NCBI GenBank assembly: GCA_046314385.1
Contig: JBKBWZ010000001.1
Coordinates: forward strand, 7,955-71,954
DNA: 64,000 nucleotides
DNA from: Alphaproteobacteria bacterium
GTDB taxonomy: Bacteria; Pseudomonadota; Alphaproteobacteria; Micavibrionales; UBA2020
Direction: 5' to 3'
Both the position numbers and the translations under genes were made by a program. The notes under the pieces are model-generated. The model made no database searches. It worked only from the letters and a program-made list of their open reading frames with translations, and was not told the DNA's origin. This document shows positions 1 through 47,915 of this stretch, in pieces; the stretch's first letter is position 1, and every line of letters begins with the position of its first letter.

Positions 1-241
1 GCAGACGGGCAGCGCTAACTTATAAGCGTTTTAGAAGATTTGCAATCTTGTGTCTTATACATATACGAGACACGGCTTTAATTGAATAATCCCACAAGCT
101 ATATATTTGCATAATGCATAACGACTTTACCCCGGCTTCCCTGCCCATTTCGTAAAAGGAAGTGCAAGTGACCCGGTCTGCATGGGGGCTACTTTATGCT
201 GCGCCACCAAAAAATGTGGAAACTGATGCTCGGGCTTAGGC

Positions 242-1585
242 TTAGATAGCTGCCGGGGCAGCGAGGGCGATGATGTCTTGTGAAGGCTTCAGGGTGAAGT
301 TGACCAGTGGCATAATTGTGGCCTCGTTTGCCATTTTCGGTGTTACATGCTGTAAAAGGGTCGCCAGTATCAATACGCCCTCCATGCCTGCCAGATGTGC
401 ACCGATACAGACATGTTCGCCGGCGCCAAAGGGCAAGTAAGCGAAGCGCGGGCGACCTTCGGCTTCGGATTTGTCGAAATGTTCAGGGTAGAAACGATCC
501 GGATGCTTCCAGAGGTCCGGATGACGGTGGGTAACGTAAAGGGGTAGCACGACCGAGCTCCCTTTGCGCACGGGGTACCCCAAGACTTCGTCGGCTTCTT
601 CGCTGAAACGGTGAATCGCCCAAGCGGAAGGATACAGACGCAGCGTTTCCTTGAAAACCATGCGCAGATAAGAAAGCCGCTCTATGTTTTTCGCATCAGG
701 AAGTCCCTGCGGCCCCAGAACATCGCGAAGCTCTTCGCGAACTTTGCCCAGTACGGCCGGGTTTCCAGCCAACGAATACCATGCCCATGCAATTGCGGTT
801 GAGAGGGTATCATAGCCCGCCATCAACAGAGTAATGATTTCGTCATGCAATTGACGGTCTGTATTTCCGCTGCGCACGAGGGCGTTAATCATCGAGTGTT
901 CGTCATCTTTGCGCGCCGCGGTGATGATATCGCGGACAACGGCATCGGCCGCGGCTTTGTCGCGGGAAAAGCGGCGGTTAACAGGCAGCGGCAAAAAGCG
1001 CGGCGGCGTCAGCGGGTTTTGGATAAATCGGTTGATATAGTAAAAGCCGTCCAGCATAGCGCTGGCAAAGGTCTCTACGCGCGGACGGATATTGTAGTTA
1101 AATAGCATGTCGCTGATATTGATAAGCCCAAGCGACATCATTTCACGGGAAATATTGACAGATACTGCCGTGCCTGCGCGCTGCCATTTGGTTGCCATCT
1201 CTGCAGTGTTGCGCACAATCATGGCGGCATATTTATCGACATGTGCCGGCTGGAAATAGGGGGTAACGGTACGGCGCTGTTTTTCCCATACGTCATCTGT
1301 GCTGGTGACGATCCCGTTTCCGCCAATATAGGAAACGATACGGCTCCATCTTGCGCCGCGGCTGTATTTTTGCCGCGCCTTGACGAGAATATGATGCAGC
1401 GCATCCGGCGCGGCAAAGGAATAAAAATTAATAAAAGGGTAGGCGTTGAAACGCAGGCAGTCACCATGCGCTCGGTGATATCGCAGGTAGAATCCGTAGG
1501 TGTCACGCTGCATTTCCGGCATATGGCCAAAAAGCAGGCGCGCACCGTCAATAGCCGGATATGGCATGGAGGGCAGCGTCGTCAT
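242..1585 (-). CDS. cytochrome P450 monooxygenase
   Basis: 447-aa ORF. It has the heme-thiolate signature FGAGEHVCIGAHLA (FxxGxxxCxG), an ExxR-like ETLR, and an I-helix-like LLMAGYDTLSTA. It is the last gene of an overlapping minus-strand operon. Confidence 0.9.
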   Translation of the reverse strand: MTTLPSMPYPAIDGARLLFGHMPEMQRDTYGFYLRYHRAHGDCLRFNAYPFINFYSFAAPDALHHILVKARQKYSRGARWSRIVSYIGGNGIVTSTDDVWEKQRRTVTPYFQPAHVDKYAAMIVRNTAEMATKWQRAGTAVSVNISREMMSLGLINISDMLFNYNIRPRVETFASAMLDGFYYINRFIQNPLTPPRFLPLPVNRRFSRDKAAADAVVRDIITAARKDDEHSMINALVRSGNTDRQLHDEIITLLMAGYDTLSTAIAWAWYSLAGNPAVLGKVREELRDVLGPQGLPDAKNIERLSYLRMVFKETLRLYPSAWAIHRFSEEADEVLGYPVRKGSSVVLPLYVTHRHPDLWKHPDRFYPEHFDKSEAEGRPRFAYLPFGAGEHVCIGAHLAGMEGVLILATLLQHVTPKMANEATIMPLVNFTLKPSQDIIALAAPAAI

Positions 1586-2462
1586 GACCTGCGCTTTCTT
1601 TCATGGCGTTGATGAAGCCGTAAAGATTTTCTGCGTCGTATCCGTGCAGCATCAGGCGGAAGCCGGCTTCAAATGTTGAAAGCGGAATCATCGGGTGTCG
1701 GTTATTGACGACACTCAGTATCTCGGGCCGGCCGAAAAGCTGGGCGACATAGGTAGCGATTGTTTCGTCGAGCTGCAGAGAGTTACTTGCACGCCAGAAA
1801 TCGTTGTCGGACAGCAAAAGGCCAAAAAGCGGCGTATACATTTCAATGGCGCTTTGCAGGTCAAGAAAGTTGTGCCAGCGGTCAGGAAGGGGTCCGAATT
1901 CATGATCAAAAGGGCGAATCGGAGAAAAGTCGATTTGCTGCAGGGGCACGGCCGCAAGCGTCTTGCCCTCGCTCTGTAAATGCGCATTCAAATAGATAAT
2001 GAAATTATAGATATTGAGATCGTGCTGGATAAAAGCATTCCCGCCGACATCGTCAATTTTACGCGGCAACAACGGATGGGCGGGCAAGGTGCCGCCTGCC
2101 AGATTACGGTTCAAAAACCCCAGAATCTGGCTGCCAATGTTAAAGTGCCGCAAAATAAGATAATTCGCATCCGGTGCGACAAATGTACGCATGCCCCAGC
2201 AGATTATGGCGTGCAAAGCACGCGGAGAGGTAAAGCGACGCGGCAGCAACAGCCGGAAGAGCTGTACGATGCCAATGCTGAGCCGGGCGAGGGGCCGCAC
2301 AAGGGGGAGTAGAAACTGACGGGATCGGCTAGCATTGTTGCGCAGAAGTGCCGACTTGACCTTTTCATCGATAAACGTACTGCGATCCAATAGCAGCGCG
2401 CGCCACGGATCGGGGTTCTGGTCATCATGCGCCGGCAAGGGGCTGGTCGCGCTGCCGGTCAT
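1548..2462 (-). CDS. hypothetical protein (no recognisable domain)
   Basis: 304-aa ORF. Its start overlaps the upstream gene stop by 4 nt (2459-2462). Its stop lies 38 nt inside the P450 ORF start. I recognised no catalytic motif. Confidence 0.6.
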   Translation of the reverse strand: MTGSATSPLPAHDDQNPDPWRALLLDRSTFIDEKVKSALLRNNASRSRQFLLPLVRPLARLSIGIVQLFRLLLPRRFTSPRALHAIICWGMRTFVAPDANYLILRHFNIGSQILGFLNRNLAGGTLPAHPLLPRKIDDVGGNAFIQHDLNIYNFIIYLNAHLQSEGKTLAAVPLQQIDFSPIRPFDHEFGPLPDRWHNFLDLQSAIEMYTPLFGLLLSDNDFWRASNSLQLDETIATYVAQLFGRPEILSVVNNRHPMIPLSTFEAGFRLMLHGYDAENLYGFINAMKESAGHDDAALHAISGY

Positions 2463-3172
2463 ACGTTGCCCAGTTCTTCAAGCTGGAGACGATAGAGCCG
2501 TGCGACAATTTTCGCGGTTTTTATAATACGCTGGCCCATGTCCGGTTCGTCAAGAATGCCGGACTTCAGGGTTTCGACAAAATGCTCCATATGGTCTTCG
2601 TCGTGTTCGGCGTGGTAAATAAAAAAACTGACCTGATCGTCGGAAAGGTTCAGTTGCTGCTGTATTTTGCGACCCCAGGCACCAGCTTTTTTTTCACCCA
2701 AGCCTTCAATAATAAACATACCGCCAAGAAGATCAAAAGGATTGGTCTGGCTGGCGCTGTGGTACATGAAGGCATGAAGTGCTTCGGTGCCGATATTCTT
2801 GGGCGCATTCTGGATGTCCGCCAGTGAACCGCCAAGCGAAACATAATGCTTTTCAAGCATCTGGAAATCCTGATGTTCCGACACGGCGTGTTTGAGAAAG
2901 ACCGAGCGCTGTTCCGTATACCGGGAATCTATGCTGGATGCCGCGCGGGCTATCCAACGTGCGCCTTCAACGACCTGTTGGCGGTGGTTGATAAGCAGAG
3001 CTTTGTAATCTTCCTCTCTGAATTTTCCGCGGCGCAGTTTGTCGATAAGCGGAACGGTTTCTATGGCGGTGTCAAAATCACTCCAGACAATCATCAAGCC
3101 GCGCATGACGGCTTCGCTATCCATCTGTGATGTTTCAGGCCTCTTCATTTTTGCATGTGCCATTCTAGACAA
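2459..3172 (-). CDS. heme-oxygenase-like diiron / iron-containing redox enzyme family protein (CADD/PqqC/TenA-like fold)
   Basis: 237-aa ORF. Candidate carboxylate/histidine ligands are SEHQDF, IIEGLGE and YHAEHDEDHMEH. The last contains the H-x3-D-x2-H spacing seen in CADD-type HDO proteins. Confidence 0.65.
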   Translation of the reverse strand: MSRMAHAKMKRPETSQMDSEAVMRGLMIVWSDFDTAIETVPLIDKLRRGKFREEDYKALLINHRQQVVEGARWIARAASSIDSRYTEQRSVFLKHAVSEHQDFQMLEKHYVSLGGSLADIQNAPKNIGTEALHAFMYHSASQTNPFDLLGGMFIIEGLGEKKAGAWGRKIQQQLNLSDDQVSFFIYHAEHDEDHMEHFVETLKSGILDEPDMGQRIIKTAKIVARLYRLQLEELGNV

Positions 3173-4292
3173 CCTCCAGCATCATCAATCCGTTCAGGCA
3201 GCGCCCGCTTTCCGGTACATGGCACAGGATTTTTTGTCCGGACGCAAGGGCTTTTTCGCGGCAGAGTTCTTCAAGCATGATAAAAATCGATGCCGTGCCT
3301 GTATTGCCGCGGGTATAGAGGTTGCTGAACCATTTTTCTTCCGGCACCAGCGCGCCCGCTGCGCGCAAAACGGCAACGGCATCCTCGCGCAGCGAGTGCG
3401 ATGAATAATGACTGCAAAGCACATCGACGTCTTCAAGCCTGAAACGTCCTTGCTGTATCAGGTCCAGATAATGTGATACCCAGACGGGGATCATCTCCTG
3501 TAAAATCGTGAAATCCTGCGTCAGCATCAAGGCGCCTTCCTCTGTAGCAGCCAGCGGGCTGCCGAAATCGCCCCAGGGGGAGATAGCGCCGTCCGCGCCG
3601 CGTGCCGCGCCTGCTGTCATGCAGGTGTCAAAACGGTCGGCGTAAGAGCGGATATCGATCCATAGAATTTTAAATGATATCTGCCGCGCATTCGGTTTGT
3701 GCTCCAATATGGCCGCACCGGCGCCATCGGAGAGGGTGAAGCGCAAGAAGTCTGCTTCTAGCGGAACACTGCCCTTATTACGGAAGTGTTTGGTGTGTTC
3801 GTAAAATCCAGGCCGGAAATAACGGCTGGCAAATTCGCTGCCGCTAACGGCTGCACAGGTATGCTCGCCGGCACGGATTTGCACATAGGCAGATTTCAGG
3901 GCCATCAGCGCACTTGCACAGACGCTTTGAAAGCTGGCAATTTCAAGCGGCGGTAGTTTAAGTTCTGCTTGTACATGGGAGGCAAGCCCCGGCAACAGCA
4001 CATCCGCAATCGTCGTCGAAGTCGCGAGATAGGAAATATCCGTAAGCAAGACTTCTGATTTTTCATGCGCATCGGCAATTGCGCTGGCGGCCATTTGTGC
4101 GTTTGAGTAAAGAGCCCGCCCGTCGCGATCAAGTGCGTAGTGGCGCGTCTTGATGCGGTTCTGGCGCAAAACAAGCGCACGGTGGCGTGACGGTCTACCG
4201 CCAATCAGCCCGAGATATTCCTCCATCTCTGCGTTGCCGATGGGGGCGCCGGGTAAAAAAGCGCCAAAACTGTTAATATATACGTCGTTCAT
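3165..4292 (-). CDS. beta-ketoacyl-ACP synthase III (FabH/KAS III)-like condensing enzyme
   Basis: The ORF-track entry is 3165..4643, but the homologous part starts at MNDVYINSFGAFLPG (ATG at 4292). The candidate Cys-His-Asn triad is FQSVCASALMAL, CSHYSSHSL and RGNTGTASIF. Confidence 0.85.
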   Translation of the reverse strand: MNDVYINSFGAFLPGAPIGNAEMEEYLGLIGGRPSRHRALVLRQNRIKTRHYALDRDGRALYSNAQMAASAIADAHEKSEVLLTDISYLATSTTIADVLLPGLASHVQAELKLPPLEIASFQSVCASALMALKSAYVQIRAGEHTCAAVSGSEFASRYFRPGFYEHTKHFRNKGSVPLEADFLRFTLSDGAGAAILEHKPNARQISFKILWIDIRSYADRFDTCMTAGAARGADGAISPWGDFGSPLAATEEGALMLTQDFTILQEMIPVWVSHYLDLIQQGRFRLEDVDVLCSHYSSHSLREDAVAVLRAAGALVPEEKWFSNLYTRGNTGTASIFIMLEELCREKALASGQKILCHVPESGRCLNGLMMLEVV

Positions 4293-5148
4293 GTGCTCCT
4301 GCTTTTGTGCAGGCGATAAAACCTGCAATGAAATCCTGCGTTTCTTTGTCGGCCAGTGCCGGTATGTGGCCGGCGTCGGGGCAGAGGTGTAGGGCGAGGT
4401 CGGGTTTGAGTGCCTGCAAATCGGCAATTTCCTGTGCCGTGCACAGATCGGATTTCCCGCCCGCGACCAATGCCAGCGGGCAGGCAAGGTTTTTGACGCC
4501 TTCGCTGATATCGATGCCCGCCCGCAAGGCGGGGGCAGCAAGGCGTGCGATTGTGGGGTCGAAATGAAAAATATATCCGGCATCGGTTTTGCGCAGCTGA
4601 TGCTCGGCATAATGCCGCCAGACCGCATCGCTGACATCGCCAAGCGGCAGATTTATTTTTAGCACCTCAAGATAGGCCTCGACCGAAGGCAGTATGGGTA
4701 GATTTTCCACGACATAATCGGCGATGCGGGCGCAGGCGGCCGGATGCGGGCGGTGCGTGATGTCAACCAGTGTGAGAGAGGCCATCTGCGCCGCGCCGTT
4801 TTGCGCCGCCATTTCAAGTGCAATCAACCCGCCCATCGAGGTGCCGATCCAGTGGACGGGGCTGCTGAAATGCCGCGCCAGCAGGGCCGTAAAGATTTCC
4901 GCATAGCGCGTCAGATGATATTCTTCGGGCGGCAGGCGCAGGCTCTCGCCGCGGCCGGGGGTATCAAAGGCGAAAAACCGCCAGCCCTGTGCGGCGAGCG
5001 CGGCGCCGATAAAATCGAAATCGCGCTTTTGACGCGTCAGGCCGTGCACGGCAACGATATCGCCGCGCGGCCGGCTACCCTGCGGCGGGTCAAACCGCGC
5101 ACAGGCAAGGCCATCATAAGCTTCAAGAGAGGGTGTCGGCGCAGACAT
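4273..5148 (-). CDS. alpha/beta-fold hydrolase
   Basis: Nucleophile elbow GTSMGG, HG oxyanion motif (VAVHGLT) and C-terminal DAGH. I prefer the start at 5148 (AAGGA 8 nt upstream); an alternative start is 5211. The stop overlaps the KAS III start by 20 nt. Confidence 0.8.
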   Translation of the reverse strand: MSAPTPSLEAYDGLACARFDPPQGSRPRGDIVAVHGLTRQKRDFDFIGAALAAQGWRFFAFDTPGRGESLRLPPEEYHLTRYAEIFTALLARHFSSPVHWIGTSMGGLIALEMAAQNGAAQMASLTLVDITHRPHPAACARIADYVVENLPILPSVEAYLEVLKINLPLGDVSDAVWRHYAEHQLRKTDAGYIFHFDPTIARLAAPALRAGIDISEGVKNLACPLALVAGGKSDLCTAQEIADLQALKPDLALHLCPDAGHIPALADKETQDFIAGFIACTKAGAHERRIY

Positions 5149-5209
5149 GGCGGTATCCTTTCGGGAAAGCGGCTTGGGAGCCAGTCTATAAACCTTGCCG
5201 CCCGCTGAC

Positions 5210-5238
5210 AAGGCACAAGCCGGATTGCCATGTGCCTT
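5210..5238. promoter_or_regulatory. 8-bp perfect inverted repeat AAGGCACA-N13-TGTGCCTT upstream of the hydrolase/KAS III/P450 operon
   Basis: Read directly from the sequence. It sits in the divergent intergenic region between the operon and the MscS-type gene. It could be an operator or a hairpin. Confidence 0.25.
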
Positions 5239-5293
5239 TAAAATCCGCTAGTATCCGCAAAGAATAACGCCTTGTACCAATGGAGACATATCA

Positions 5294-6166
5294 ATGGATA
5301 TCCAGAGCCTGCCTGCAGATTTCAACCAGGGAATGAAAATTCTTCAGGATAATCTGCCCTTTCTGCTCGAGGTGGGGACGCGTATTTTAAGCGCGCTGAT
5401 CATTCTTGTTGTCGGCTGGTTGGCCGGTAACTGGGTACAGCGCCGCGTGACGTCGATTAAAAAGCTGGATGCAACCTTGACCGGTTTCTTTGGCGGGTTT
5501 CTAAAATACGGCATTCTGGCTGTTTCGATGATTACCGTGCTGGGCCAGTTTGGCGTGCAGACGGCCAGTCTTCTGGCGGTGCTGGGTGCGGCGGGTCTGG
5601 CCATCGGCCTTGCCATGCAGGGCACGCTGTCGAACGTGGCGGCCGGGGCGATGATACTTATTCTGCGTCCGTTCAATGTCGGCGATTATATTCAGGCGGG
5701 CGGCATTGGCGGTACGGTCAAGGCGCTCGGTCTTTTTGGCACAGAAATGGCAACGCCCGACAATGTCTATATTTTTGTACCGAATGGAAAGATCTGGGGA
5801 GCAGACATCTGGAATTATTCGCGCCACCCGCACCGCCGTCAGGATATCAACGTGGCTATCAGCTATGGTGATGATATCGACAAGGCGCTTGGCGTGATCC
5901 GTGCTGTGCTGGAAGCCGAGCCGCGCCTGCTGCGCGGTGAAGAGGGCAAAGAGGCGGATGTGCTGGTCAGTAATATGGGGGATTTTTCCATCGATCTTAT
6001 TGTGCGTTTCTGGTGCGGGCGCAGTGATTACTGGGCGCTGAAATGGGCGCTGACCAAGGCGATCAAGGAAGCGCTGGATTCTGGCGGCATCACCATTCCG
6101 TTCCCGACCCGCACACTGGAAGTGCGCGATGGCCGGCCTGTTTTGCCCAAAGCGGCTATACAGTAA
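5294..6166 (+). CDS. mechanosensitive ion channel (MscS family)
   Basis: 290 aa. N-terminal TM helices are followed by the MscS beta-domain block PFNVGDYIQAGGIGGTVKALGLFGTEMATPDNVYIFVPNGKIW. A GGAGA RBS lies upstream. Confidence 0.9.
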   Translation: MDIQSLPADFNQGMKILQDNLPFLLEVGTRILSALIILVVGWLAGNWVQRRVTSIKKLDATLTGFFGGFLKYGILAVSMITVLGQFGVQTASLLAVLGAAGLAIGLAMQGTLSNVAAGAMILILRPFNVGDYIQAGGIGGTVKALGLFGTEMATPDNVYIFVPNGKIWGADIWNYSRHPHRRQDINVAISYGDDIDKALGVIRAVLEAEPRLLRGEEGKEADVLVSNMGDFSIDLIVRFWCGRSDYWALKWALTKAIKEALDSGGITIPFPTRTLEVRDGRPVLPKAAIQ

Positions 6167-6178
6167 CCCACGAAGGAT

Positions 6179-6970
6179 ATGGCCATCATGCAAAACGCCC
6201 TCTCCGTCACCGCAAAAAAATACCTTGTTGGCGGGGTGGCGTTATTGCTGATCGCGCTTGCTTTTGTTTTTCCGCCCATCGCGCAGGATCTGAGCTATCA
6301 CGATTTTGCCGACAAGCGGGCAGCGGCACATGTGCCGAATGCGGGGGATGTTCTCAGCAATATTCCGTTTTGCATTGCCGGCCTGTGGGGCATGGTTCTT
6401 TTGTGGGGCCGCCGTGCGGCAGATAAAGAAGCGTATCTGCTGTGGTATGTTTTCTTTGGTGGTGTTTTTTTGGTCGGCTTTGGCTCCGGCTATTATCACT
6501 GGTCGCCCGATAACCAGACGCTGGTCTGGGACAGGCTGCCGATGACGATTGCCTTTATGTCGCTTTTTTCGCTGGTGATTGCAGAGCGTATCGATGCGCG
6601 GCTGGGCTATGCGCTGTTTCCGGTTTTGCTGTTGATCGGCGCAGGCAGTGTTTGGTACTGGGCCTATACCGAAAGCATCGAGGCGGGTGATTTGCGGCCC
6701 TATGCATTGGTGCAGTTTTTGCCTGTCGTGCTGATTTTGATGATGGTGGCGCTCTTCCCGTCGGCGGCCGGCGGCACGCGGTATTTGCTGTGGTGTCTTG
6801 GCTGGTATCTGGCCGCCAAGGGGCTGGAGCATTTTGATGCAGAAGTCTTTGCCCTGCTGGGTCATACCGTCAGCGGCCATAGCCTCAAGCATCTGGCGGC
6901 GGCGGCGGGCGTGGCCTGTTTGCTGCCTTATGCGAAATTGAGACTGGTAGAAAAGCCTCCCGCACGCTGA
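6179..6970 (+). CDS. ceramidase-domain (alkaline phytoceramidase-like) integral membrane protein
   Basis: 263 aa and polytopic. Conserved-looking blocks are YHDFADKR...VPNAGDVLSNIPF, GSGYYHW and SGHSLKHL. Confidence 0.55.
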   Translation: MAIMQNALSVTAKKYLVGGVALLLIALAFVFPPIAQDLSYHDFADKRAAAHVPNAGDVLSNIPFCIAGLWGMVLLWGRRAADKEAYLLWYVFFGGVFLVGFGSGYYHWSPDNQTLVWDRLPMTIAFMSLFSLVIAERIDARLGYALFPVLLLIGAGSVWYWAYTESIEAGDLRPYALVQFLPVVLILMMVALFPSAAGGTRYLLWCLGWYLAAKGLEHFDAEVFALLGHTVSGHSLKHLAAAAGVACLLPYAKLRLVEKPPAR

Positions 6971-7022
6971 AAACCTTGGCCGCGGGGTTTCGCCTGTGCA
7001 GGAATTCCGCTAAGCTTGCCGC

Positions 7023-8369
7023 ATGGATACGGATGCTTTCGTAAATAGCGGGCGGCGCGGGCCGCCGCTTTGGGTCATGATGCTGGCGGGTTTGGCCGCG
7101 GGCGTCGGCGCCGGTATTTTGTTTGGCCCGGGCGGTATCTTTGCGCTGCCGGCCGAGGCGCTCTTGCCGGTCACCGATTGGGTCATGCTGCCTGCGCGGC
7201 TTTTTCTGGCGCTGATCACAATGATCGTTATCCCACTAGTTTTTTGCTCGATCCTGCTGGCGATCACCGAAAGCGGCGGGTTTTCTTTTTTGCGCAGCAT
7301 CGGCCCGCGTGTCGCGGTATATTTTGTCTGTACGACCTGCGTGGCCGTTTTGCTGGGTATACTGATCAGCGGGGTTATACAGCCCGCACAGCACGTACCC
7401 GACAGCTGGCTTTCCGCACGTATGGGCGGGGCAGAACAAACGCTGGAGAAAGCCGCCATGCAACTTGGCGGCGGCAAATCCATTCCGCAGTTGATTGTCG
7501 GTGTTATCCCTGTCAATCCGGCGGCGGCGGTGATGCAGCAGGAAATGCTGCAACTGGTTATCGCCGCGCTGCTGGCCGGACTTGCCTTGGTGGCGCTGCC
7601 GCGGGCGCAGGCACAGCCTGTGATCTCCTTTTGCGCCGGCGTGCAGGCGGCCTGCATGAAAATCGTTTTCTGGGCGCTTAAACTGGCGCCGCTCGCTGTC
7701 TTTGGGTTTCTGTTCCGTCTGACGGTGGAAACGGGGCCGGAGATGCTGACCGCCTTGTCGTGGTATATCGGTGCGGTGCTGGCCGGTCTGGGCGGTGTGC
7801 TTGTCATGTATATGCTTATTGTGTCTTTTGTGGCGCGTCGCTCTCCGCTCGCTTTTCTGGCGGCCATACGTGATGCGCAGATGCTGGCCTTTTCCAGCTC
7901 CAGCTCTGCCGCGACCATGCCACTGACGCTGGCCACAGCGGAAAGCCGCCTTGGCGTGCGGCCTGCGGTTGCGCGGCTGGTTGTGCCGCTGGGCACAACG
8001 ATCAATATGGACGGTACGGCGGTTTATCAGGTTATTGTCGCGCTGTTTCTGACCGGCTTGATGGGAATAGAACTGTCATTTGCACAAACGGCGCTGCTGG
8101 CGCTGACCATTGTCGGGGCGTCTATCGGCTCGCCCGGCTCGCCCGGTGTCGGGCTGGTGATCTTGTCGGTGATCCTGACAAATATCGGCATTCCGCCCGA
8201 AGCGATCGGGATTATTCTCAGCGTTGACCGGCTTTTGGACATGTGCCGCACGGTCGTCAACGTCACGGGCGATCTGGTGGCGGCAACGGTTGTAGACCGC
8301 TGGGCGGGCGAAGGGCTTCTTGCCGCGCCGCCGGCTGACAGCCTTACGGAGCAGAAAGTATCAGCATGA
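7023..8369 (+). CDS. dicarboxylate/amino acid:cation symporter (DAACS/GltP family)
   Basis: 448 aa. Motifs: SSSSAATMP, GTTINMDGTA, GSPGSPGVG and DRLLDMCRTVVNVTGD. The true start may be a few codons downstream. Confidence 0.85.
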   Translation: MDTDAFVNSGRRGPPLWVMMLAGLAAGVGAGILFGPGGIFALPAEALLPVTDWVMLPARLFLALITMIVIPLVFCSILLAITESGGFSFLRSIGPRVAVYFVCTTCVAVLLGILISGVIQPAQHVPDSWLSARMGGAEQTLEKAAMQLGGGKSIPQLIVGVIPVNPAAAVMQQEMLQLVIAALLAGLALVALPRAQAQPVISFCAGVQAACMKIVFWALKLAPLAVFGFLFRLTVETGPEMLTALSWYIGAVLAGLGGVLVMYMLIVSFVARRSPLAFLAAIRDAQMLAFSSSSSAATMPLTLATAESRLGVRPAVARLVVPLGTTINMDGTAVYQVIVALFLTGLMGIELSFAQTALLALTIVGASIGSPGSPGVGLVILSVILTNIGIPPEAIGIILSVDRLLDMCRTVVNVTGDLVAATVVDRWAGEGLLAAPPADSLTEQKVSA

Positions 8370-9730
8370 AACTCACCTTTCTCGGTGCGGCAGGTACGGT
8401 CACGGGTTCGCGTTATTTACTGGAAGACGACAACCGCAAGATACTGATTGACGCCGGATTGTTTCAGGGGCGCAAAGATCTGCGAGAGCGCAACTGGACC
8501 CCGCCGACATTCAACCCTGCCGATATCGATGCAATTCTGCTGACGCATGCCCATATTGATCACAGCGGATATATCCCGCGGCTGGTCAAGGACGGATTTC
8601 GCGGCCCGATTTATTGTACGTCCGCGACGCAAGACCTTTGCAATATCTTGCTGCCGGATAGCGCGTATTTGCAGGAGGAAGACGCCGCCAACGCCAATCG
8701 CTTCGGCTATTCCAAACACCAGCCTGCCTTGCCGCTGTATACGCAGGCCGATGCGGAGGCGGCGCTGGAGCAATTCCGCGCCATAGATTTTGGCAAACGC
8801 TATGCGCTCAAAGATAGTTTGCTGGGCTTTACCATGTACCGCGCCGGCCATATTCTGGGCGCGGCGTTTATCCGTGTGGATGACGGCATGACGTCGGTGC
8901 TGTTTGGCGGGGACATCGGGCGTCTCAACAATCCGGTCATGAAACCACCTGCCAAGATACAGGAAGCGGATTATCTGCTGATTGAATCAACTTATGGCGA
9001 CCGGCTGCACAATACCGACGATCCGACCGAAGATATTTTTCGCATTGTGCGCGATACGGCGGCGCGCGGCGGCACGGTCGTTATTCCGGCTTTTGCCGTC
9101 GGCCGTACGCAGGCGATTCTGTATCATATTTATCTGCTCAAAAAGCAAGGGCGCATCGCCGATGTGCCTGTTTTTGTCGATAGTCCGATGGCTATCCGCG
9201 CCACGGCGCTGCTTTCCCGCCATCCTGCCGACCACCGCCTGCCGCCGGATATCTGCGCGGCCATCGACAGCATGACGCGCTATACCCAGACAACGGAAGA
9301 GTCGAAAGAGATCAACAGCCGCAACAGCGGGATGCCGAAAATTATTATTTCTGCCAGCGGTATGGCGACAGGCGGGCGTATTCTGCACCACCTTAAATAT
9401 TACATCGGTGATGAACGCAATACGATTTTGCTGGCAGGGTTTCAGGCGGACGGCACGCGCGGTGATCGTCTGGCACGCGGCGAAAAAGAACTTTCGATCC
9501 ACGGGCAGATGTGGCCGGTGCGGGCGCAAATCGCGCATCTCGATAATATGTCGGCGCATGCGGATTATGCCGAGATACTGACATGGCTCGGCAATTTCAG
9601 CGCGCCACCACGCCGCGTGTTTATCACGCACGGGGAGCCGCAAGCCGCCGCCGCGATGCGCGGGCATATCGAAACGCGTTTTGGCTGGGACGCACATGTG
9701 CCTGAACATGGCGAGACGGTTGAATTATAA
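8366..9730 (+). CDS. MBL-fold metallo-hydrolase with beta-CASP / RNA-metabolising domain
   Basis: 454 aa. It has the HAHIDHSG metallo-beta-lactamase motif and a C-terminal MSAHAD...ITHGE block. Its ATGA start/stop overlaps the symporter gene. Confidence 0.85.
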   Translation: MKLTFLGAAGTVTGSRYLLEDDNRKILIDAGLFQGRKDLRERNWTPPTFNPADIDAILLTHAHIDHSGYIPRLVKDGFRGPIYCTSATQDLCNILLPDSAYLQEEDAANANRFGYSKHQPALPLYTQADAEAALEQFRAIDFGKRYALKDSLLGFTMYRAGHILGAAFIRVDDGMTSVLFGGDIGRLNNPVMKPPAKIQEADYLLIESTYGDRLHNTDDPTEDIFRIVRDTAARGGTVVIPAFAVGRTQAILYHIYLLKKQGRIADVPVFVDSPMAIRATALLSRHPADHRLPPDICAAIDSMTRYTQTTEESKEINSRNSGMPKIIISASGMATGGRILHHLKYYIGDERNTILLAGFQADGTRGDRLARGEKELSIHGQMWPVRAQIAHLDNMSAHADYAEILTWLGNFSAPPRRVFITHGEPQAAAAMRGHIETRFGWDAHVPEHGETVEL

Positions 9731-47840: not shown

Positions 47841-47915
47841 TGGCTGGGGTGCTAGGGATCGAACCTAGGAATGGCGGTACCAAAAACCGCTGCCTTACCG
47901 CTTGGCTACACCCCA
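47841..47915 (-). tRNA. tRNA-Gln (anticodon UUG)
   Basis: The reverse complement is TGGGGTGTAGCCAAGCGGTAAGGCAGCGGTTTTTGGTACCGCCATTCCTAGGTTCGATCCCTAGCACCCCAGCCA. It folds as a cloverleaf with a 7-bp acceptor stem, anticodon loop TTTTGGT, a GGTTCGATCC T-arm and an encoded CCA. It closely resembles E. coli tRNA-Gln. Confidence 0.92.

Follow-up and report, generated by a model that had tools for sequence, protein, structure and literature searches.

DarB/StlD-type ketosynthases (KSs) are, to our knowledge, the only enzymes that make a resorcinol or cyclohexanedione ring out of a pair of fatty-acid intermediates, and their products serve as antibiotics, pigments (flexirubin) and cell-cell signals. 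In the described reaction, DarB joins a beta-ketoacyl and an alpha,beta-unsaturated acyl thioester into a carboxy-cyclohexanedione, and the aromatisation of this ring by DarA/StlC comes with its decarboxylation (PMC6836626). Some accepted dialkylresorcinol clusters lack an acyl carrier protein (ACP) and draw on the acyl-ACPs of primary metabolism (PMC6836626). 'DarA-less' DarB homologues exist as well, in cyanobacteria; their products are described as unknown and their clusters are listed as an open problem (PMC6836626). The locus considered here lies at one end of a 64,000-nt stretch of an alphaproteobacterial contig (the window, to whose positions all operon coordinates refer). Its minus strand carries five consecutive genes at 242-5148, encoding an alpha/beta hydrolase, a KS, a heme-oxygenase-like dimetal oxidase (HDO), a protein of the Pfam family DUF6999 and a P450. 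The three central genes form a conserved unit, the KS-HDO-DUF6999 triad, which is widespread in uncultured Alphaproteobacteria and whose product is probably a ring compound derived from fatty acids and made without the DarA aromatase.

The conservation of the gene set was followed in 97 loci, collected from metagenome assemblies, metagenome-assembled genomes and two control genomes, which include about 60 non-redundant related loci (cited below by their L numbers). A scan of genome contigs with the DUF6999 protein gave three close relatives only, and the taxonomic breadth was therefore taken from metagenome contigs. Gene order was assessed in the 52 non-redundant DUF6999 loci whose upstream sequence extends over at least 2.1 kb. 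The KS and then the HDO lie directly upstream of DUF6999, on one strand, in 50 of these loci, the exceptions being L028 and L040. The arrangement extends to DUF6999 branches 28-31% identical to the window protein, where the HDO, and the KS wherever the contig reaches that far, is still immediately upstream. Between lineages the HDO is 64-88% and the DUF6999 protein 57-90% identical, and the flanking genes are entirely different. Because of this complete difference of the flanks, the triad is regarded as the conserved unit, to which the hydrolase and the P450 are lineage-specific additions. The original prediction had treated all five genes as one unit expected to co-occur. This holds for the triad but not for the genes at its ends: a P450 directly follows DUF6999 in 7 loci out of 58, and the window hydrolase has orthologues in L001, L002 and L009 alone; the full set is confined to relatives with a DUF6999 identity of at least 90%.

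The most direct link within the triad is gene fusion, the KS and the HDO being one open reading frame (ORF) in 23 of 60 loci. An example is the 626-aa fusion protein of L075, in which an ACP_syn_III and a Haem_oxygenas_2 domain are joined by a linker of about 35 residues. Such fusion is a classic sign that the KS and the HDO act sequentially on one intermediate. The homologues come from sources named Micavibrio sp., Rhizomicrobium sp., Rhodospirillaceae and unclassified Alphaproteobacteria, and on contigs of 2.3-2.7 Mb, some of them named Micavibrio sp., the module is a single compact unit.

The KS had been described as a FabH-type condensing enzyme (KAS III) with a plausible Cys-His-Asn triad. 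The catalytic triad is confirmed, with C125, H295 and N330 conserved, but the enzyme is of the StlD/DarB type and not a generic FabH. Its best model is NCBIfam NF005293 (StlD/DarB family), at 365 bits and under the curated cutoff of 450, and the NCBIfam DarB model gives 315 bits. The fused KS of L075 has the same top match, at 444 bits and likewise under the cutoff. The KS aligns over its full length (residues 2-375) to the crystal structure of Photorhabdus StlD (5GK0, E 2.4e-73), with no indels in the active-site segments. In this alignment, Cys125, Glu153, His295 and Asn330 correspond to C126, E154, H302 and N337 of StlD. Within the KS family alignment the Cys, His and Asn are present in 40 of 40 sequences and the Glu in 39, one sequence having Asp. 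The paper on the StlD structure reportedly assigns E154 a role in cyclisation. As judged from the alignments, the KS is a cyclising ketosynthase of the StlD/DarB type in which the four catalytic residues are all kept, and placing it there rather than among generic FabH enzymes narrows the chemistry considerably. In a rough, unrooted neighbour-joining distance tree, the DarB/StlD clade stands beside one clade of fused KSs and not outside all KSs of the module. Identities between the tree groups are 36-47%, and those between the module KSs and DarB/StlD are 36-43%.

The second protein of the triad was expected to be HDO-like with six metal ligands. Its Pfam match and its fold bear out the HDO assignment, and six invariant residues are candidates for the ligands. 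It matches PF14518 (Haem_oxygenas_2) at 48.2 bits, above the gathering threshold of 28.9, and its AlphaFold2 (AF2) model (predicted local distance difference test, pLDDT, 91.5) shows the seven-helix heme-oxygenase-like fold. Foldseek gives template modelling (TM) scores of 0.80-0.82 to 3DDE, 0.77-0.79 to CADD and 0.73 to UndA; the CADD value is normalised to the query and becomes 0.83-0.86 when normalised to CADD, at a sequence identity of 11-13%. At the sequence level, 3DDE is its sole relative in the PDB; this entry is a structural-genomics protein without assigned function. The six candidate ligands (H92, E96, E153, H184, D188 and H191) do not vary among 36 sequences, which go down to 28% identity, and they occur also in 3DDE; the last three fit the H-x3-D-x2-H pattern of the superfamily. 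For the superfamily, which includes the oxidative decarboxylases UndA and BesC, the ligand motif is given as E-H-X-H-D/E-H (PMC11363339). Several aromatic residues are invariant as well (W27, Y53, W70, Y107, Y183 and Y224). By sequence and predicted structure, the protein is a true member of the heme-oxygenase-like dimetal oxidase family with a complete set of candidate metal ligands. As a side observation, many stand-alone HDO orthologues (about 221-232 aa) are named '3-oxoacyl-[ACP] synthase III' by JGI/NCBI, and one is named 'long-chain-fatty-acid--CoA ligase'. The Pseudomonas aeruginosa 'putative 3-oxoacyl-ACP synthase' in the PDB (3BJD) matches the HDO fold with a TM score of about 0.7. 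The KS-type names on the orthologues and on 3BJD look like annotation carried over from KS-HDO fusions.

The third protein, of 304 aa, had been reported to carry no recognisable motif, which does not hold, as it matches Pfam PF22523 (DUF6999) at 361 bits against a threshold of 27 and over profile positions 1-275 of 275. Its AF2 model (pLDDT 94, predicted TM score 0.90) is all-alpha with 12 helices. A Foldseek search of this model against the PDB and BFVD gave no match (best E about 0.5-1, TM at most 0.23), and a profile search of the PDB sequences was empty, so that the predicted fold is apparently unsolved. An alignment of 41 sequences, reaching down to 21% identity, shows H106, P133, H147, D201, D232 and H273 as invariant and R105, D148 and E278 as near-invariant; the invariant His and Asp residues all lie within or at the ends of predicted helices. 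From this set of conserved His, Asp and Glu residues, the protein is suggested to be a soluble metalloenzyme built of helices. It has no predicted transmembrane segment, and no stretch of 19 residues reaches the usual hydrophobicity threshold; a membrane protein was rejected on these grounds, the weak Foldseek matches to transporters being noise. An HD-domain, ferritin-like or HDO fold was likewise rejected, as no match in the PDB or BFVD exceeded a TM of 0.23. DUF6999 is the most diagnostic member of the module. Its homologues number 3007 among 90%-identity clusters, with 334 representatives at 50% identity, and those of the HDO 1708 among 90%-identity clusters.

The enzyme that is absent from the module is the aromatase. 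A DarA-like gene was found neither within the operon nor among the recurrent neighbours at the approximately 60 related loci, and PP-binding (ACP) genes are missing from the operon and from every annotated related locus. The control loci have the opposite composition: Pseudomonas chlororaphis carries DarA-DarB-DarC (L093) and Photorhabdus StlC-StlD-StlE (L094), without HDO or DUF6999. The DarA/StlC proteins of these controls have 313-315 aa and no Pfam match, and the control ACPs have about 80 aa. Comparison by hhalign with DarA/StlC gave a probability of 0.6% for DUF6999 and 0.2% for the HDO. The DarA/StlC N-terminus, MKxVLVVxYSQSGQ, looks flavodoxin-like by eye. With the hhalign value of 0.6% and a different N-terminus, DUF6999 was rejected as an analogue of DarA by descent.

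The neighbourhood of the triad points to acyl substrates. A gene of the FA_desaturase family lies near the module in at least seven loci. In four loci, the gene directly downstream of DUF6999 matches the equivalog Aas (acyl-ACP--phospholipid O-acyltransferase) at 1668 bits, above the cutoff; the encoded protein, about 1130 aa long, combines an MFS, an acyltransferase and an AMP-binding domain. This adjacency hints at a link to acyl-ACP supply or to phospholipid remodelling. The substrates of all accessory genes, P450s and alpha/beta hydrolases included, are lipophilic or acyl compounds. Neighbours of about 630 aa recur in L009, L011 and L012; they were rejected as a shared partner, being unrelated proteins (by eye, that of L009 is UvrC-like and that of L012 coiled-coil-like). 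The interval between HDO and DUF6999 is occupied in some loci. A fatty-acid desaturase is found there in L059, L060, L064 and L092. In L053, whose KS is fused, a 293-aa ORF at 3611-4492 lies between the two genes and has no match in Pfam or NCBIfam, and L046 has a gap of 1.2 kb (5772-7001) without a long plus-strand ORF.

From the gene order in 50 of 52 loci, the KS-HDO fusion, the KS residues, the HDO fold, the absence of DarA and the acyl-type neighbours, the following pathway is proposed. The KS would take a 3-oxoacyl and a 2-enoyl thioester from the housekeeping fatty-acid pool (ACP- or CoA-bound), as DarB/StlD does, and would convert them by Michael addition and Claisen cyclisation into a carboxy-2,5-dialkylcyclohexane-1,3-dione. 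The HDO would receive this product directly and oxidise it with O2. Most economically, this would be an UndA/BesC-type oxidative decarboxylation/desaturation; it would aromatise the ring to a dialkylresorcinol and take the place of DarA. DUF6999 would provide a third obligatory step, which might release or hydrolyse the product, oxidise it further or rearrange it. In the window lineage, the hydrolase may help to release or trim the thioester and the P450 may hydroxylate the ring or the chain. In other lineages a fatty-acid desaturase could act as the tailoring enzyme, and Aas could tie the module to acyl-ACP and phospholipid metabolism. That the operon is a self-contained, O2-dependent pathway which makes a lipophilic product from fatty-acid intermediates by this specific chemical sequence is a tentative proposal, to which we give somewhat less than an even chance. 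A more far-reaching version is doubtful. In it, the triad is an unrecognised system, with the HDO as a decarboxylative aromatase (or the catalyst of another new oxidation) on the ring made by the KS, with DUF6999 as a metalloenzyme of new fold, and with a product that serves uncultured and in part predatory (Micavibrio-like) bacteria as a conserved lipid, signal or antioxidant.

Several points weigh against this proposal. Every chemical step in it is one that we infer. The sequence runs that hold the contig are DNA metagenomes only, with 0 RNA runs; the contig was found in hot-spring and lake metagenomes. One clade, formed by L027, L028 and L040 and the sole exception to the triad, has a DUF6999 about 61% identical to that of the window without an adjacent KS or HDO, and neither was found within 5-7 kb upstream. 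The first ligand pair of the HDO reads H-x3-E, where the usual order in the superfamily is E...H, and the closest characterised structural neighbour of the HDO is CADD, not UndA. We know of no HDO that aromatises a cyclohexanedione. The role given to DUF6999 is a guess, its metal binding being read from the conserved residues alone. As the KS scores 365 bits under a cutoff of 450, it forms a sister group of the StlD/DarB family, and its reaction could differ. The DarA-less DarB homologues may likewise not make carboxy-cyclohexanediones (PMC6836626).

The last two points lead to a rival chemistry in which no ring of this kind is formed. The KS would perform a non-cyclising head-to-head Claisen condensation, similar to OleA, NocG or pyrone synthases, and deliver a 2-alkyl-3-keto acid or a pyrone, from which an UndA-like decarboxylation or C-C cleavage by the HDO would give a long-chain ketone, an olefin or a pyrone lipid. 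Besides its score under the StlD/DarB cutoff, the KS belongs to clades apart from the characterised DarB/StlD enzymes, and the HDO fold resembles that of the fatty-acid decarboxylase UndA (TM 0.73). The FA_desaturase-family neighbours recall what we take to be UndB-type chemistry. The different reactions considered for DarA-less DarB homologues (PMC6836626) fit this rival, and a non-decarboxylative Claisen condensation of two fatty acyl thioesters by a KS-like enzyme is described for NocG (PMC9486936). The glutamate aligned with StlD E154 is, however, kept in 39 of 40 family members, the match to StlD is full-length with intact active-site segments, and OleB/C/D-like genes are not present. A non-cyclising route is somewhat unlikely. 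Rather unlikely, too, is the reading of the triad as a housekeeping pathway, by either chemistry, for an essential cofactor-like or membrane molecule (a quinone or antioxidant head group, or a special membrane lipid) rather than for a secondary metabolite or signal that the cell can do without. The conservation of the HDO (64-88%) and of DUF6999 (57-90%) between entirely different flanks is unusually strong for a biosynthetic cluster, the module is a single compact unit on the 2.3-2.7 Mb contigs, some of Micavibrio sp., and Aas, a gene of phospholipid remodelling, is a recurrent immediate neighbour; yet the tailoring genes vary between P450, desaturase and hydrolase, as is typical of specialised metabolism.

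The closeness of the HDO to CADD and its invariant aromatic residues (W27, Y53, W70, Y107, Y183 and Y224) would also fit a CADD-like, self-sacrificial or amino-acid-processing enzyme, which supplies an aromatic or otherwise unusual starter that the KS condenses with a fatty acyl thioester. This is highly improbable. Sequence identity to CADD is only 11-13%, no amino-acid-activating enzyme accompanies the module, all neighbours being fatty-acyl in type, and the KS-HDO fusion fits an HDO that acts on the KS product at least equally well. A different kind of doubt concerns the outer genes, as the hydrolase and possibly the P450 could be adjacent genes outside the pathway. Orthologues of the hydrolase are limited to L001, L002 and L009, about 400 nt from the KS in the last, and 51 of 58 loci lack the P450. 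In the window, however, the hydrolase overlaps the KS by 20 nt and the P450 overlaps DUF6999 by 38 nt. P450s have, moreover, joined the module in at least three separate arrangements (the window lineage, L041 and L039), and in L022 the KS is abutted by another, different alpha/beta hydrolase. A mere adjacency of these genes is thus quite unlikely.

In the proposed pathway, the hydrolase is an accessory particular to this lineage and a candidate for a thioesterase or release function. Its Pfam matches are Abhydrolase_1 (69 bits), Hydrolase_4, Abhydrolase_6 and, weakly, Thioesterase (28.6 bits), its sequence contains a GTSMGG nucleophile elbow and a DAGHIP histidine, and its best PDB matches are the uncharacterised hydrolases 3BWX and 4OSE. 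The different hydrolase of L022 is located directly upstream of the KS. The P450 matches PF00067 at 230 bits and has the heme-Cys loop FGAGEHVCIG and the ExxR motif (ETLR). Its nearest solved structures are two putative P450s (7WZL and 3DBG), LUTEIN DEFICIENT 5 and P450 BM3. The seven loci with a P450 directly downstream of DUF6999 are those of the window lineage (DUF6999 identity at least 71%) and L041. The P450 of L041 and that of L039, which is upstream and divergent, are about 40% identical to the window P450. The P450 is a recurrent but non-universal tailoring enzyme.

Table 1. Features of the operon in the window and Aas genes at related loci (Aas positions are those of the respective locus).
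Feature	Position	Strand	Remarks
Alpha/beta hydrolase	4273-5148	-	ATG, 291 aa, operon gene 1
KS	3165-4292	-	ATG, 375 aa, core gene 1
HDO	2459-3163 or 2459-3172	-	ATG, 234 aa, or TTG, 237 aa; core gene 2
DUF6999 protein	1548-2462	-	ATG, 304 aa, core gene 3
P450	242-1585	-	ATG, 447 aa, last operon gene
Divergent intergenic region, operon to MscS-type channel gene	5149-5293		145 nt, likely promoter region
Downstream non-coding spacer, operon end	1-241		First part of 366-nt intergenic region
Aas gene, L031	7852-11268		
Aas gene, L079			
Aas gene, L083			
Aas gene, L090			
Aas gene, L012	13764-16879		Few kb away

The five predicted ORFs of the operon are all present and in frame, with 0 internal stops (Table 1). 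Three of the four overlaps listed in the original prediction stand, namely 20 nt between hydrolase and KS (4273-4292), 4 nt (ATGA) between HDO and DUF6999 (2459-2462) and 38 nt between DUF6999 and P450 (1548-1585). An alternative P450 ATG at 1567 would shorten the last to 20 nt; the 38-nt version is used by the called genes on L001 and L002 and by the ORF list of L009. The fourth, of 8 nt at 3165-3172, exists only with the TTG start of the HDO at 3172, whereas the ATG at 3163 leaves a 1-nt spacer. The latter start, which the near-identical contigs L001 and L002 have in their called gene of 234 aa, fits better because the homologues have 221-227 aa. The KS/HDO junction is tight with either start. 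In other lineages, the KS and the HDO overlap by 1-4 nt, and the HDO/DUF6999 junction ranges from an 8-nt overlap to a 1-nt spacer. The KS is taken to start at ATG 4292, since its homologues have 374-376 aa and an AGGAG motif lies 4 nt 5′ of this codon. In the mechanical ORF list, the KS frame runs over 3165-4643 (-), 117 codons further to a TTG within the hydrolase gene (492 aa), and the gene called on L001 starts at TTG 4328 (387 aa). The operon is compact and co-oriented, and it is almost certainly co-translated. As had been claimed, it contains no ACP, CoA ligase, regulator or exporter gene according to Pfam/NCBIfam scans and gene annotation.

The sole sizeable non-coding gap upstream of the five genes is 5149-5293. 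It contains a sigma-70-like match, TTGTCA-17-TAGACT at 5211-5183 (-), upstream of ATG 5148; promoter-like matches in this gap are no commoner than in shuffled sequence. At the other end, no terminator-like sites were found in 1-241, where the terminator scan performed no better than on shuffles. The AT-rich character of 1-241 had been read as a hint of horizontal acquisition, a suggestion that is not upheld. The spacer (45% GC) is part of an ordinary 366-nt gap before same-strand sugar-nucleotide genes, and on L001 the gene after the P450 starts 366 nt past the P450 stop and encodes a sugar epimerase/dehydratase. As the operon has 54.8% GC and the window 56.6%, there is no compositional sign of horizontal transfer. 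Two genes from the operon, on the plus strand, 6179-6970 encodes a 263-aa hydrophobic protein without NCBIfam match, which is annotated as Ceramidase (PF05875) on the near-identical L001 and has a 260-aa ORF at the corresponding position of L009. A link between this protein and the lipid chemistry of the operon is possible. Further along, a 448-aa hydrophobic ORF with a transporter-like look (7023-8369, +) overlaps by 4 nt a 454-aa ORF (8366-9730, +), and L009 has ORFs of equal sizes (448 and 454 aa). The only Rfam match in the window at gathering thresholds is a tRNA gene at 47844-47915 (-), with 60 bits.

The module is a concrete and very widespread candidate answer to the problem of the DarA-less DarB clusters. 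If the proposed pathway is true, it widens the reaction repertoire of the HDOs, for which a decarboxylative aromatase would be a new reaction type. It would also give a first function to DUF6999, a family of more than 3000 homologues among 90%-identity clusters, and add a new conserved metabolite to a large, mostly uncultured section of the Alphaproteobacteria. With about 2.7 kb and apparent self-sufficiency, the module is directly accessible to heterologous expression.

The claim that the gene combination is not a characterised pathway agrees with the literature searched, NCBIfam, Pfam and the PDB, where no assigned product was found. Literature searches on DUF6999, on DarB/resorcinol/StlD and on HDO-ketosynthase combinations gave no description of the module, nor any account of an HDO that is fused to a ketosynthase or has one as partner. 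The two clusters in the literature that look nearest, those of listianol (DarA and DarB) and of nocuolin A (NocG), proved to be other systems. The olefin-forming OleABCD pathway differs in its condensing enzyme, as the module KS is StlD-like and not OleA-like. OleC is an AMP-dependent beta-lactone synthetase and OleD an SDR; Pfam and NCBIfam scans found neither AMP-binding (OleC-type) nor SDR (OleD-type) domains in the five operon proteins, and no OleB/C/D-like genes occur in the annotated loci. We know of no counterpart in the Ole pathway to the oxidative enzymes, HDO and P450. With the HDO family (UndA, BesC, SznF, CADD, FlcD/E and HrmI), the module HDO has in common the PF14518 match, the fold and the three His and three carboxylate candidates with the C-terminal motif H-x3-D-x2-H, and it differs in the H-x3-E order and in having 3DDE as its only sequence relative in the PDB.

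The closest resemblance is to DarABC/StlCDE of Pseudomonas, Photorhabdus, Bacteroidota and the cyanobacterial brt cluster. The KS family is common to both, with Cys, Glu, His and Asn kept, and the module is also a small, fatty-acid-fed cluster. The brt and the putative microcarbonin cluster likewise have no dedicated ACP and carry desaturases or oxygenases as tailoring genes (PMC6836626). The cyanobacterial DarA-less clusters are similar in their DarB-family KS, their small size and the missing aromatase, while HDO and DUF6999 partners are not part of their description in the review (PMC6836626) and the module loci are alphaproteobacterial. Against DarABC/StlCDE, the module replaces the aromatase and the ACP by DUF6999 and an HDO that is often fused to the KS, and its KSs form distinct clades, 36-43% identical to DarB/StlD and under the family cutoff. 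The condensing enzyme thus comes from a known family and probably performs related chemistry, whereas its obligatory partners are new for this family.

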